Shown: positions 14,373 through 54,310, numbered from the whole stretch's first letter. The stretch: DNA of 62,447 bases, filler included, from Sluysia triapertura (GCA_046118255.1; 5 parts of 5 records of this genome joined end to end with filler, not necessarily neighbours in it); one strand, 5' to 3'. The notes: generated by a model from the sequence alone, not told the origin. A program made the numbers and translations.

Positions 14373-15113
14373 TAACCTTCAAGGTTGATGTATGAAAGTG
14401 TATATATATATATATATATATAACAATCACATATACATATCACACAATACTTTTCACTCAATTATAAATTTTAATTCGTTTTGGTAAATTATTGGAACAA
14501 GATTTTTGGACAGCACTTTTATAGATTGACTTGATTAAATCTCTTGTGTAAACGTTAGTTTATTTTATTTAGGATACGATATTTTTTAAAATATCATTGT
14601 AAAATATTACTCAAATTCTTTTAATAAAATTTGTCATCTTATAACAGATCTTTTGCAAAATCATTAATAAAAATTTTTACTATTTGGAATTACAAAGATA
14701 ATTCCTGCAAACTATTATATTATTATTATTATGCTTTATTGTAAATTTGTATTTTCTAGTTTGTGTAATTAATAAATCCTTTATAAGGTTAATATTGTCT
14801 TTTTGATATTAAATTAAATAGTTGCAAAGTAGAGAAATCATTACTTGACACAGATTGTTTTTGTTAACTAAAGTAACTAAATTTTAAAGAATCCTTATCA
14901 TAGGATTTATGCAAAATACTTATTAAATTGTTAAAATTGAATTGACAAAACCTCCAGACAATTAAAAGACAGTAAGAAATCGGTTAAACTTTTGAGAAAC
15001 CTTTATTAGCTAAAATCCAACGGCTGGCCCTCGCTGGTAAGTCCACTACGTTGGTGAACTCACGATATTTTAAATCAATCTTTATTCTATTAACTTTATT
15101 CTTTACTCTCGCA
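14373..15113 (+). mobile_element. Recurrent cassette copy C
   Basis: TCAAGGTTG at 14379, TA-run at 14401, GTTAGT at 14554, palindrome at 14889-14908, stem-loop at 15013-15063, terminus CTCTCGCA ending at 15113. Confidence 0.78.
15013..15063 (+). ncRNA. Conserved stem-loop motif, copy C
   Basis: AAATCCAACG-GCTGG-CCCTCGCTGGTAAGT-CCACT-A-CGTTGG-TGAACTCAC. Confidence 0.7.
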
Positions 15114-16999
15114 ATATAAAAAGAATTGTGAATCATATCAATCATACTTATCCGAAAAGTGAATTTATGAATGATTTAGATAGTGATAAAGAGACATGGA
15201 AAGTCGAAATTAATGTCAAAGTTTTCTATAGTGAAGTTTCAGAAGTAAATTCAAAGAAAAATGTATTTTATTTCAATGCAAAGAGAGAATGATAACGAAT
15301 TACTTTAAACGATTAATTCGTTACATGAAGTTCTATCGATTCCAGAAGATGAGGAACAACATTTTCCTTGGTTATGTTTTATGTTTGCAATATGATACTA
15401 TGTTTTCAATTTCAATATATATATAAAGTTCCTGTGTCATGATAATTTTTTAATAAAGAATTCTACTAAAGCTTTAATAAACCTAGCTAAATAGATGTTT
15501 ACGACAATTTGTTAATAAAATCGATTTATTGAGTTTTAATATTTATAAGGACCTTAAATCCATTTTGAATTTTGAATTTTTGATAAGCTTAAATATATCT
15601 TGGGCTATTTCAAACCTGTTTTTGTTATTGGGTTAGCGTTGTCCTTTCAGCTCTCATTAAATTATAAATAGATTGATGGTTACAATAAACAAAAAGAATA
15701 ATAACATTTATAAATTCGAATGCGGTTTTAAATGTTGCTTAAAAATGTGTCCCACGAATTTATAAAGTAAAGGATCAAAAAATTTAATTAATTTTATTAA
15801 TAAATTATGTCAAATTTAAAAAGTACAAATCTATTTGTGAAATATTCGTATTATTTAGTTATTGTACTAAAACATTTACTTGATACATTTGTCATTTTCA
15901 CAGAAACAATTATATCAGAAATCAAAATTAAAAATATAAAAGAATGTTGCAATTATTTTATTAAAAGCTTATTATAATTAATTATTATAATATGTAATAA
16001 ATATAACACATATTTGCCATTTTATTAATACTGCATAATTTACATCTGAGCGCACGTTCGAATTGTTCAAATGTATTAACTCTATTTTGATTAAATCAAG
16101 TAAATTTAGTAATTTATTTTTGATTTGTGTTTAAAAATAAATATGGAAACATTGCAAAATTTGTGATACGAAATATATAATACGCATTTGACTTTTATAT
16201 TAATAAATAAAATAATAATAATAATAATAATAATATTAATAATATTAATAATATTAATAATAATAATAATAATAATAATAGAGATAAAGATAAAATAAAT
16301 AATAATAGTTCATAAATTGATTTTAAAAATGTGTTTTTTATTACATATTTCCATATTTCATTTATATACATAATTATTGTTTATCTAATTATCATTATTT
16401 ATATGGATTAATAATTTGACAGTCTAAACCATTAATTAGTAGTTTAGTTTATTGTAACATTTTTACAATTTATTTTCTAAAATTTTTAAATATTTGGTGG
16501 CACATTTCAATGTGCTAATCAAGGTATCTTAAAAAGAACTCAATATCTCTATTGGCACTGTTTGTAACATAAAAAATATGGAATTGATGTATAAACTACA
16601 TCTGACAAATATGCCAAATTTTGATTTTTATTTTTCATATATATTTAAAAATATATCGAATTAAGTAGTTGAAAATTCTAAGCTAAAAGTATATATATAT
16701 ATATATATATATTGAAATCAACAACTAGATTTGTAATAGTTAAGCTATTAAATAATTATTTTTTCACAGAAACTGAGTATAATAAAGTGATTCAGATGAT
16801 ACACAACACAAAAGATTCATTGTAAAAGGTTAGAAAAAACTGAAAATGTTTAGCTTAATGGAAGAAGTGAATGGGAATATTCGCATTCTCATTATAAAGA
16901 ATCAAAACCAAAGAAGACGTAAAGCAAAACTTCCCCAAAGAAATTTTGTAATACATATTTAGAATTTTAGACGTTTTAAATAACCAAAGAGTTTTATGC

Positions 17000-17077
17000 A
17001 AATGAATTAAGAAAATGAATTAAGAAAATGAATTAAGAAAATGAATTAAGAAAATGAATTAAGAAAATGAATTAAGA
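17000..17077. repeat. Minisatellite, 6 perfect copies of AAATGAATTAAGA
   Basis: Direct reading. Confidence 0.95.
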
Positions 17078-18536
17078 TAATTTTATAGAATAAAAGTCCA
17101 ATAAATAACATATTAAAAATCGCTAAAAAAAGTAAAAATAATATGAATAATGCTAGAAAAATTGTCGATTTTATTCGAAATTTGAATAGTATCAGATCAC
17201 AACTAAATTATTTTCAAATAAGCACATAAAGCATCATCCAAACATATTACTGTCTATAATTTAAACTGGTTATCAAAAATTAAGTAAATATTTCCAAGAT
17301 AAGGAGGAATCTTAAATCGAAATTTGTGAATCAGATAATCATTAGATAGGAAATTTCTGACGAATAATGATCATCTACTTGTGAAATGTTTCAAATTTGG
17401 AGATTTAATATTAGTTAAAAAGTAATTTATAAAATAATAATAATAAATAAAATAACAATTCTAATAATAATAATAATAATAGTCAGTAAAAAATATTAAA
17501 AACCTAATTAACCATTGTATTTGAAGTATACGAATGACGGAATCAGAGTATAAAGTGAATGAAGTAGCATTGTTATTAAATTTTATTTTTCATTATTTAT
17601 AGTCAAACAAATTCATTTATATGGAAATAATATATATATATTAAAATTATTCTTATTTAATTTCTCAAGCATTTAATAATAAAGTTATCTGAATCAGGAA
17701 TCGTCAATTTTTTATTTTAAAAATTGTTGTTTCAGTCGAATTATTCGTTGTTTTTCAAAATAGTTTCAAAAAGAATTCAATGATAATCTTATTGTTTAAA
17801 GAATAAATAAAACTGTATTAAATATTTTCTTAAAGTTGATTTATTCGATTTTCCATCATCAAAATTCGAAAATCCGAATTCGGAAATAATAAGAATTGAA
17901 TTTTTATGATAACTAAATAAAAGTGTCATAAAGTTTTATTGTTCTATAATATAGTTTACTTTAAGATTATTTATAATTAAATTTCATTTTATTAATTATT
18001 AAAACAAATAATTAAAAGAAGTTAATTAAATTTAAATTTTTAATTAAATACAAAATTCTGCTTTATTTGCATTGTAATTCTATCTAACTTTTATGAAATT
18101 AGTTATTAATTTTCCTAAAAATCCTTAAATTATATGCTTTGTAAGATATAAATTTGAAAATAATTAAAGAAAAAATCAGTTATTAATTAAATTTTTGTTT
18201 AATATTTATTAAATTTCTGATAAATGTGCACATATAATAATAAATATTACTTAAATTATCAGGAAATAATTTAATTTAGTTATTATTAGAATTATTTATT
18301 AAATAAAATAGTATTACATTCAGAAATTTATAAAAGTAGTCAAATAAATAGCAATAATACTGAATTTTTTAAGCAAGTTTGATTTAACAAAATAATTTGT
18401 TATTTTAATTATATAAATAAAAATAAATTACTTCTATAGGCTTAATTTCAATCAAAAAAAACAATAAAAATATGTAGCATAAAATATAGTAGTATTCTTA
18501 TAAACAAAAATAATGCATATTAATACATGAGTTTTA

Positions 18537-52391: not shown

Positions 52392-53556
52392 CATACATTA
52401 AATTCAAATAAATACTCAATTTAAACAAATATTTTATTTGTCAGTTTTAATTTTTAAACAATTTCTTTCATTAATAATATTAATTTAATAAATAATTTAC
52501 CGATAAAACCAAGATAATAATCATTAAATCCAGAATTGAATATAAAATTAAGTCAAAATAATCAATTTGAAACTTTGTACAACTATGTTACTTGACATTA
52601 TTATTATTATTACATTATTGATAATTTAGACGTATTATATTACAAAACAATCAATAATACAGAATATTCTTCATCGTTTGAATTACGTCGTTAGTATTGA
52701 TATTTATTTGTTTAGAAAAATACTAATTTCAAATAATGCTTTTTCATTTAGTTCTTTTAAAAGTTGGTTTTTGTATTGAAACCAATCTAAATGTTGTACA
52801 ATTTTACTTTATCTTAATTATATTGTTGCATTACTGCTAAAAAATTACTTTTCAAATTCATTCAATATTGTGCTTCTCTATCCTACAAAAAGGTTTTCCA
52901 TTTTTTAGATAAATATTTTATTTTATGTCTGTCATTCTCACACTGAAACAGAGCTCTAAATGATGCAGCCATTAAAATTTGTTTAATTGATTTAATCAAT
53001 GGTCAGAATGAAAAAATGTATGAATACTGTCAGTATATATATTTATATATAACAATTAGAATTATTATTGTGATATTTAGATTTAACCTTTTGTGTGCGA
53101 GTGGTAGATAAATTTATCGTCAAATAGATATACGTGTATTAACTAACTATCCAATGAACATATTATTATTTAATCCAGTAAATTATTCACATTATAAAAA
53201 ACGTAAAAAAGTGTCCGTGTTGGTCACCTAAATCTCATAATGAATCGATACATTTGGCTGACAGACCATAATTCTTATTTATCAACAAAGTAAAAGATTA
53301 TTACTGCTTTATGTATCGTCTTGTCTGTACTTTACCAACAATTTGAAATTCCTTCTAGGCAGTGTTAATAGACTTAGATTTTTGTGAAGTTATAAATACA
53401 TTCGTTCTTAGTTATTATTTTAGTTATAAATTAATTGGTTTAATTTTACATAATAATTTTAATGAATCATTTTACTTCAGATATTTGTTGAATTTCGAAT
53501 TTGAATTTTATTCGAATTTCCCAATCATTCTTTAAATCCTAATAAAAATCTCACAT

Positions 53557-53583
53557 TATATATATATATATATATATATATAT
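53557..53583. repeat. (TA)n microsatellite next to the end of cassette copy H
   Basis: Direct reading. Confidence 0.95.
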
Positions 53584-53593
53584 GCTACGCTTT

Positions 53594-54310
53594 TGCAAGA
53601 ATAAAAGAATAATATTACAGTGAGTCCACCAAAGTACTAGACTTACCGGTTAGGGCTAGCAGTTGGATTTTAGAAGTAATTAAGTATAGGAGTTTAAATG
53701 CAAAATTATAATCGAACAGATATTCTTAAAAATTTTATTAATTTACATGTAACTTATAATTGAATATTTAACAATGAATTCGTTAAAATAATTCGGAATA
53801 AAGATAGTTCTGGATGAATCCATAAAAAAGATTCAGAAAATAAAATATTTTACGTTGAATCTATTAAAAAGATTCAATAAAAATTATAGCATTAACTTTG
53901 AATATTTTTAACTTTAAAGCAAAAGTTTTCTAAATATATATTGTAGCACAATTGGGTTATACAACTGTCAAAATTAATTTATAATAACAAATAATAAAAT
54001 TACAAAAATTAACTTGAAAATAGTTAATTCACTCAATAAATTAAAATTGATTTTACAAAAGGAACTATGAAAAAGTTACAAAAAATTAGTTACAAAAATT
54101 TAAGTTTAATATTACTATGTGCCTGACGGTACTAATCTTAAAATAATAAACTAATGACTGTTTCAGATAAATTAAAACTGGGTCAGTTCTTCGGTTTTGT
54201 CCAAACGTTGAAAAATAAATTCGAAATTGTACAAATTATTTTTAAAAATTTGGCTGTTAAATTATGTGTTAAATCACTTATTTAAAAACTCTTTTTAGAA
54301 ATGACCTTGA
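53594..54310 (-). mobile_element. Recurrent cassette copy H
   Basis: TCAAGGTCA at 54302-54310 (minus), palindromes at 53815-53835 and 53855-53877, stem-loop at 53620-53670, terminus TCTTGCA at 53594-53600. Confidence 0.76.
53620..53670 (-). ncRNA. Conserved stem-loop motif, copy H
   Basis: Reverse complement AAATCCAACT-GCTAG-CCCTAACCGGTAAGT-CTAGT-A-CTTTGG-TGGACTCAC. Confidence 0.7.

Follow-up and report, generated by a model that had tools for sequence, protein, structure and literature searches.

A putative promoter-leader module with a covarying bulged hairpin recurs in the genome of Sluysia triapertura

Analysis of a 62,447-nt stretch of DNA from Sluysia triapertura (GCA_046118255.1; five parts of five records joined end to end, filler included; hereafter the window) led to a recurrent module of ~750 nt, in which a nuclear-receptor-like (NR-like) site, a TATA motif, a GTTAGT box, spaced palindromes and a 55-nt bulged hairpin follow each other in the same order. 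The module is very probably the promoter and leader of some mobile element, and we tentatively read it, with a probability of about 40%, as the pseudo-long terminal repeat (pseudo-LTR) of a hammerhead-less group of Penelope-like retroelements (PLEs). An earlier, sequence-only reading of positions 14373..54310 had proposed a cassette whose architecture and spacing are conserved while its sequence has diverged; this cassette proved real and larger than noted, with copies also outside that range.

The hairpin and its copies

The bulged hairpin occurs nine times in the window. An alignment of seven copies gave a stem of 11 pairs with one bulged A, paired in 89.6% of cells, and two-sided changes at four of the 11 pairs. 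This paired share was matched by none of 500 shuffles and slid controls reached 17-64%; related copies may outdo shuffles of this kind, and the structure comes from these very sequences. The covariance model returned 23 matches up to an E-value of 5, including the seven training copies, and two of the others are further copies (E-values of 1.1e-6 and 5.2e-4), the next match standing at 0.43. One of the copies found in this way, copy I, proved to carry an NR-like site and a box-like motif at 169 nt, and is an out-of-sample confirmation of the cassette, though its leader holds ATGs. The loop reads GTAAG in all nine copies and ACTCAC lies 21-23 nt later in seven of them; the second hairpin of copy G has a different stem and the same loop and downstream motifs. 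The copies and promoters of the same type are the following.

Copy A, 14379..15113, plus strand: NR-like site at 14379, (TA)n TATA at 14401, GTTAGT box at 14554, spaced palindromes, hairpin at 15005-15075, TTTATTCT twice, TCTCGCA end box.
Copy B, 21982..22765, plus strand: NR-like site, TATA at 22000, GTTAGT box at 22163, AGGTTC..GAACCT palindromes from 22482, hairpin at 22672-22742, TTTATTCT, TCTTACA; high contig depth.
Copy C, 25603..25810, plus strand: NR-like site, TATA and ATG-free leader only; atypical box; no hairpin found.
Copy D, 30062..30825, plus strand: the most complete copy, with three AGGTTC-N7-GAACC palindromes at 30530-30626 and the hairpin at 30726-30797.
Promoter-only site, 45204..45240, plus strand: TCAAGGTCA and TATAAA, 1.06 kb upstream of G.
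Copy G, 46262..47163, plus strand: NR-like site, no clear TATA, GTTAGT box at 46442, two hairpins at 46895-46967 (different stem sequence) and 47092-47163 (compensatory changes).
Copy H, 53583..54310, minus strand: NR-like site at 54310, ATTAGT box at 153 nt, GAATC-N9-GATTC palindromes, hairpin at 53608-53678, TCTTGCA, then (TA)13.
Copy I, 51545..52391, minus strand: NR-like site at 52391, TTTAGT box at 169 nt, hairpin at 51551-51616, then (AAT)n.
Copy Z (outside 14373..54310), 6178..6785, minus strand: GTTAGT box at 6784, palindromes, hairpin at 6215-6285, TTTATTCT, then (ATT)n; no NR-like site at the expected distance.
Copy Y (outside 14373..54310), 12876..13350, plus strand: upstream part cut by an assembly gap; palindromes, hairpin at 13253-13325, TCTTGCA.
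Promoter of the same type, 7830..8412, minus strand: TCAAGGTCA and TATAAATA, 575 nt to the first ATG, no box or hairpin.

The gaps of the assembly (12775-12874, 25089-25188, 39164-39263 and 50135-50234) each consist of a 12-base spacer between two runs of 44 N, and distances across them are not real.

Concerning the promoter end, the five pairs of TCAAGG and GTTAGT on which the sequence-only reading rested are all exact, and the conserved spacing lies beyond random expectation, as GTTAGT stands 175-181 nt downstream of five TCAAGG sites out of 27 on the two strands. Over 20,000 random placements, no 7-nt band within 50-1000 nt collected five pairs (the best collected four, once), and none of 150 Markov regenerations did so either. 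GTTAGT alone is not enriched (30 observed, 29.9 expected), whereas TCAAGG is (27 against 12.5 +/- 3.6), and TCAAGGTYA is enriched about nine-fold (8 against 0.88). TATAWA follows five of the eight TCAAGGTYA sites at 17-28 nt (chance 0.057 each), and the 300 nt upstream of the NR-like sites have 12-19% GC, five of seven falling below the 5th percentile of the window. The distance from NR-like site to hairpin, previously put at ~630-840 nt, holds for A (633), B (698), D (671), G (838) and H (639), and the coordinates give 782 for I and 640 for the upstream hairpin of G. The claimed recurrence of the GTTAGT box stands for A, B, D, G and Z, but the box varies in H and I, and in A, B, D, G, Z and H it extends to a T-rich run and an AG 19-20 nt from the GT. 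Copy C keeps the NR-like site and TATA expected of a cassette member, but its GTTAGT at 25778 is out of register with the box seen elsewhere, the T-rich..AG half of which comes ~20 nt later; because of this misalignment and the missing hairpin, its 175-nt spacing may be partly chance. The arms of the palindromes between box and hairpin are family-specific, namely AGGTTC..GAACC in B, D and Y, GAATC..GATTC in H and AATCC..GGATT in A and Z. Outside these motifs, gapped alignment gave 69-73% identity between copies against 61-70% for unrelated pieces (one control overlapping the copy itself, at 1.0, was left out).

The hairpin consensus folds at -8.7 kcal/mol in sense and -11.3 kcal/mol in antisense, and the stability of single copies does not exceed that of shuffles (z -1.5 to +0.8), so that either strand may be the one that folds. 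The hairpins of A and B are 85-90% identical and their flanks cannot be aligned, which suggests that differences between copies are family differences and not neutral decay. The loops of B, Z and H also contain CCCTAAC, which we take to be the reverse complement of the planarian telomeric repeat. Short telomere-like stretches are noted for endonuclease-less PLEs in the parts of that literature available; since six of the nine copies lack the exact word, this is a lead only.

Several known structures were compared with the hairpin. The Rfam 15 covariance scan of the window gave four matches (E-values 1.2-4.5), far below the gathering score and none on the sense hairpin. The hammerhead core is absent from eight modules on both strands and no ribozyme of Rfam matched, while twister and hepatitis delta virus-like folds, compared by eye from recall, do not fit. 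As a primer-binding site (PBS), the TGG motifs inside the hairpin were rejected by eye, given a variable motif in a covarying stem. A micro-intron starting at GTAAG would lack an AG at any fixed distance beyond the box, GTAAG and ACTCAC paired as a pseudoknot have one fixed mismatch and no covariation, and most copies lack the CTRR end of a Helitron after the hairpin. The hairpin pattern had no match in IMG/VR, nor did its long pattern in the JGI metagenomes; the nine short-pattern JGI matches (35-60% GC, all lacking the stem's 3' half) were taken as chance.

Leader, downstream sequence and copy level

The leaders of six copies (770 nt) hold no ATG against 10.3 expected, and the stretch from box to hairpin holds 16 against 48.0 expected (P = 8e-8; 3505 nt, seven copies). 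The depletion is found on the sense strand only, over the ~700 nt that follow the TATA, with normal counts in antisense and in the flanks on either side, and for this reason we take the module to be a promoter with a long 5' leader. In copy D the first ATG comes 1006 nt after the NR-like site. These counts point to selection against upstream start codons across all of the module, so that at least some of the time it will have acted as a translated 5' leader. A putative intron between box and hairpin is only weakly supported, because the depletion continues there and an excised intron would not need it. Two other C/A-rich, ATG-poor stretches look like long leaders without hairpin, at 7830-8412 (minus strand) and, by eye, at ~10000-10260 (plus strand).

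Three further features adjoin or enclose the copies.

Broken stretch resembling an open reading frame (ORF), 13364..14091, plus strand: between Y and A; several stops, one frame change.
Broken SR-protein-like RRM relic, 22829..23150, plus strand: directly after B; weak match.
piggyBac-like miniature inverted-repeat transposable element (MITE), 20172..23919, strand not set: TTAA and 9-nt inverted ends; B and its flanks (~20465-23814) nested inside.

An ORF start follows the module in Y and probably in B. After Y, the first in-context ATG lies 14 nt past the end box and opens a broken ORF-like stretch of 716 nt, whose last 101 codons are open up to a stop at 14079, with AATAAA just after it and then the spacer of A. 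It had no match in 1.84 billion proteins and its atlas matches were all below 0.9. The relic after B matched weakly (E-values 0.06-0.4), seven of its 11 matches being SR proteins, and is itself high-copy, as judged by contig depth at 22923. Two motifs common to the regions after A and B were found only there, and those regions align no better than background. After D, a broken, very basic and beta-rich ORF-like stretch lies at 31609-32088 (plus strand), with no family match; its single-sequence fold, like one other, was unusable and too poor for structure search (pLDDT, a predicted confidence score, 45-46). Three labels given by eye were not confirmed, namely a death domain after D, REEP/Yop1 at 20672-20887 and an Ulp1 protease at 47689-48069.

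The window has 16-42% GC per kb, mostly near 22%, and its sole identifiable intact gene is a single-exon neuropeptide receptor at 18537-19730 (minus strand; G-protein-coupled receptor (GPCR) of NPY/PrRP type), the remainder being repeats and gene relics. The best single-domain matches of this receptor are Girardia NPR1 (54%) and Schmidtea NPYR-7 (49%), which identifies the host as a planarian. Contigs of one run, which may be the source of the assembly itself, were aligned at 80% to 17500-25080, and 8110 of them fell on these 7.6 kb. Depth reached 189,128 at 22726, in the hairpin of B, against 13 on the receptor gene, which is single-copy by this measure. As summed depth is no copy number, according to the method's own caveat, the ratio of ~14,400 (divisor 13.1) is read only as very many copies. 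Just upstream of the hairpin bin the depth was 1,823, on leader and promoter 795-977 and further up 155-227, while it stood at 1,787-1,918 at 20536-21041 and at 3,577-7,160 downstream of B, where repeated DNA runs past the CA box. Among the loose ends listed, 229 fall at 22680 and 112 at 22729 with agreement near 0.5, which indicates unlike flanks on both sides of the hairpin core. The hairpin belongs to a high-copy repeat. Among the joints listed, 20315-20464 is joined to 23794-23847, and these joints, together with the TTAA and 9-nt inverted ends at 20172 and 23919, indicate that B and ~2.5 kb of flank are nested in the piggyBac-like MITE. Both arms of this MITE are very high-copy, and a second piggyBac-like MITE was seen by eye only at 47412-47639.

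The copy level bears directly on the alternative named in the sequence-only reading, a new non-coding transcription unit: a stand-alone host family of this kind becomes unlikely. A family of non-coding or short-peptide host genes sharing a promoter, whose product would be the hairpin RNA (intronic or processed at the 3' end), would suit the conserved promoter geometry and the covariation. However, it meets 8110 contigs on 7.6 kb, a hairpin with hundreds of unlike flanks, a copy nested inside a MITE, an Rfam scan whose best match (E-value = 1.2) lies elsewhere in the window, single copies no stabler than shuffles and an ATG depletion that points to a translated leader, and we regard it as highly improbable.

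Class of the element

The Penelope-like reading draws on both ends of the module. Pure microsatellites begin 65-101 nt after the hairpin in three of eight copies (chance 0.012 each, in a window chosen after seeing the data), and they occur at module ends in both (AAT) and (ATT) sense, so that target bias suits better than a templated tail. TTTATTCT follows five of the nine hairpins, and end positions vary by up to ~35 nt past this box. Copies Y-A and H-I form head-to-tail pairs, each ~1.0-1.2 kb apart. Microsatellite ends, variable end positions, head-to-tail pairs and a terminal promoter-leader would thus match the published description of pseudo-LTRs, and depth peaks at the 3' end, the pattern expected from 5' truncation. 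In the portions of the PLE literature available, the pseudo-LTRs of Penelope/Poseidon, the Perere clade and Naiad carry, as the module here would, a TATA-type promoter and 5' leader in a terminal repeat that ends near the ORF start, with palindromes, tandem arrays, microsatellite neighbours and host-gene cargo. Canonical PLE clades have a hammerhead in the repeat, while the modules here have none, like Naiad, which reaches very high copy number without it according to the same portions. These descriptions differ in a repeat of ~200 nt in rotifer PLEs, against ~750 nt here, and contain no covarying bulged hairpin.

As a Penelope-like pseudo-LTR, the module would start Pol II transcription from the AT-rich tract, the TATA and the NR-like site, which we take to be of NR5A type, and its leader would stay ATG-poor because it precedes an ORF. 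Placed at the 3' end of an element, it would act, in the manner of pseudo-LTRs, as promoter for the unit that follows in a head-to-tail array. The divergence of the many families would have taken place while they were active, with only the functional motifs retained, and non-autonomous members would carry unrelated cargo, host-gene relics included. The hairpin near the end would be a cis signal read by a helper reverse transcriptase (RT) or by an RNA-processing step; that it is conserved from family to family suits a site recognised in trans by a common helper. GTAAG and the ACTCAC box resemble the consensus of a 5' splice site and of a branch box, and might control splicing or 3' cleavage. 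With no constant AG, the hairpin motifs resemble a decoy donor or a substrate of first-step-only cleavage. Donor-like motifs in a structured context, used for control and not for intron removal, are known from the negative regulator of splicing of Rous sarcoma virus, the major splice donor of foamy virus and the spliceosomal cleavage of fungal telomerase RNA, as far as the available parts of PMC3082916, PMC4299874 and PMC3694450 go. This likeness to decoy or regulatory splice sites is an analogy only.

A number of observations weigh against the Penelope-like reading. Protein-family (Pfam) scans, limited to this one decayed 62-kb window, covered 28 of 39 ORFs of at least 80 aa, 147 of 179 shorter ORFs chosen by GC and 18 read-through frames, and the ORFs scanned gave no match to RT or GIY-YIG, though 5'-truncated autonomous copies should leave remains; non-autonomous PLE copies need no RT. 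The tandem partners are unlike each other over the 380 nt upstream of the hairpins (z 1.6-1.8 for Y-A, ~0 for H-I), while those of a fresh partial tandem would be identical. None of the modules has an inverted copy beside it, no second module appears before the end of the repeated kilobase after B, five of eight ends have no microsatellite, and the 450 nt downstream of eight copies are no more ORF-like than random windows. The depth peak may equally come from one motif common to many families. Finally, host relics look uninterrupted over the aligned stretches, and genes moved by PLEs have kept their introns (PMC3846280). Since one tested feature of PLEs is missing and the enzyme is unseen, no family membership is assigned.

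The sequence-only reading had seen in the cassette the promoter/R/U5 end of the LTRs of a diversified retroelement superfamily. A promoter and leader common to many diverged high-copy families is supported, but the specifics of an LTR are not: the hallmarks of an LTR, namely a PBS, a polypurine tract (PPT), TG/CA ends with target duplication and gag-pol, were not found in the window. The corresponding explanation is that the modules are the U3 end, R and U5 of long Gypsy LTRs of Burro type, solo or decayed and several kb long, with the ORF relics inside U3 or past it; the GTTAGT box would be the major splice donor, possibly restraining the 5' LTR's polyadenylation, and the hairpin a packaging or strand-transfer signal. 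TATA and an ATG-poor leader fit R-U5, and foamy virus LTRs are known to have a splice donor upstream of their poly(A) signal (available part of PMC3694450). Burro/GYPSM1 giant Gypsy elements also reside in planarians in thousands of copies with accessory ORFs and host-like domains, according to the available part of PMC6431247, while PBS, PPT, TG/CA ends with duplication and polyprotein remains were not found here, in a comparison made with their description. The proposed terminus TCTTRCA does follow four of nine hairpins, but it is not constant, and the window has 27 instances of it. TGTAGTG, after ATTAT, lies near the start of the 3.3-kb segment nested in the MITE, and ATTAT recurs at the other border of this segment, where no CA is found. 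No TGG lies within 8 nt of the CA box in five of five copies, nor a PPT in the 1.5 kb upstream of the NR-like site in seven of seven, although solo LTRs would lack both PBS and PPT anyway. A TG start with duplication and inverted match was absent for A, D and H, and the TG candidates of B either run across the single-copy GPCR or consist of 4-bp matches whose inverted identity is 3-4/8; TG..CA ends with a target duplication of 4-6 bp were sought in five copies and in the nested segment. No gag, RT, RNase H or integrase matched in the ORFs scanned, and depth falls about four-fold just upstream of the NR-like site of B, where a family U3 should stay level. Repeated DNA also runs on past the CA box of B. 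We hold a Gypsy origin to be doubtful. The ta-TRIM elements of tapeworms are likewise non-autonomous flatworm repeats whose solo copies act as promoters, but their 198-bp TG..CA LTRs, tRNA-Leu PBS, PPT and 4-5 bp duplications, as given in the available part of PMC4558846, were not found here.

The unlike tandem partners would be accounted for if a large multi-gene DNA element (Maverick/Polinton-like, or an endogenous virus) carried the modules as internal promoters and leaders of its genes, each driving its own accessory or captured gene, with neighbours being old paralogues in one element. The order of ORF, stop, AATAAA, AT-rich spacer and promoter between Y and A suits this view, as do the like promoter at 8412 without hairpin and the nesting of B with both flanks in the MITE at similar depth near both borders. 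Mavericks have expanded in Dugesia and carry cargo in nematodes, as far as the available parts of bioRxiv 10.64898/2025.12.11.693146 and PMC10680173 describe them. Against this stand the ORFs scanned, with no match to polymerase (pPolB), integrase, ATPase, transposase or capsid, a nested segment without inverted ends and the missing IMG/VR match; microsatellite ends and a depth peak confined to the hairpin would be left unexplained. Such an origin is unlikely, and a class other than the four named here is more unlikely still.

A far-reaching form of the Penelope-like reading may also be formulated, as a long shot. The modules would represent a telomerase-related, ribozyme-less retroelement superfamily of planarians in which a hairpin with splice donor and branch box replaced the hammerhead, with the tandem transcript being cut or shielded by the spliceosome of the host. 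By itself the module would be enough for mobilisation, would chain unlike units head to tail and would have spread host cargo, such as the SR-protein domain, to hundreds of nuclear-receptor-controlled copies.

Other features and significance

Elsewhere in the window, broken relics of a PP1 phosphatase (940-1350, plus strand; E-value = 4e-11), of a HIP1R ANTH domain (57908-58402, minus strand; E-value = 4e-14) and, weakly, of a DEAD-box helicase (3205-3580, minus strand) have no adjoining hairpin module, and neither the HIP1R nor the SR-like relic had a match in a word-indexed search. A GC-rich (33-42%) decayed coding island at 47400-49760 (plus strand) shows by eye an Ulp1-like motif and a C2H2-like finger, unconfirmed by Pfam or PDB; an Ulp1-like protease and a C2H2-like finger occur in some long interspersed nuclear elements. 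Positions 44620-44758 and 8959-9048 hold two related copies, the first resembling by eye the head of a tRNA-derived short interspersed nuclear element on the minus strand, and the tRNA scan of the window (ARAGORN) found no tRNA. Two diverged inverted pairs (32120-32377/40845-41191 and 33662-33989/40454-40790) are 70-82% identical and 6.5-8.5 kb apart.

Planarian genomes consist mostly of repeats, largely annotated by automatic tools. The hairpin structure is apparently undescribed, being absent from Rfam, the collections scanned and the literature searched, while Repbase, Dfam and the Burro paper or its supplement may already contain the sequences. The available parts of PMC11410931, PMC8532177, PMC13238120 and a retrozyme preprint hold no description of it. 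In the full-text literature the matches listed for the hairpin motifs concern one motif only and none are on planarians, and one supplement of PMC8557442 gave no match. A 55-nt structure shared by otherwise unalignable families offers a handle to find and classify a possibly large share of the genome, and its conservation points to a cis signal needed by the elements. If they are plain Gypsy LTRs, the result is useful annotation and little more. If they are Penelope-like, it bears on RNA processing in hammerhead-less elements, an open question in PMC8557442. The expression of host genes could also be affected by promoters that carry a nuclear-receptor-like site and are scattered in their thousands.

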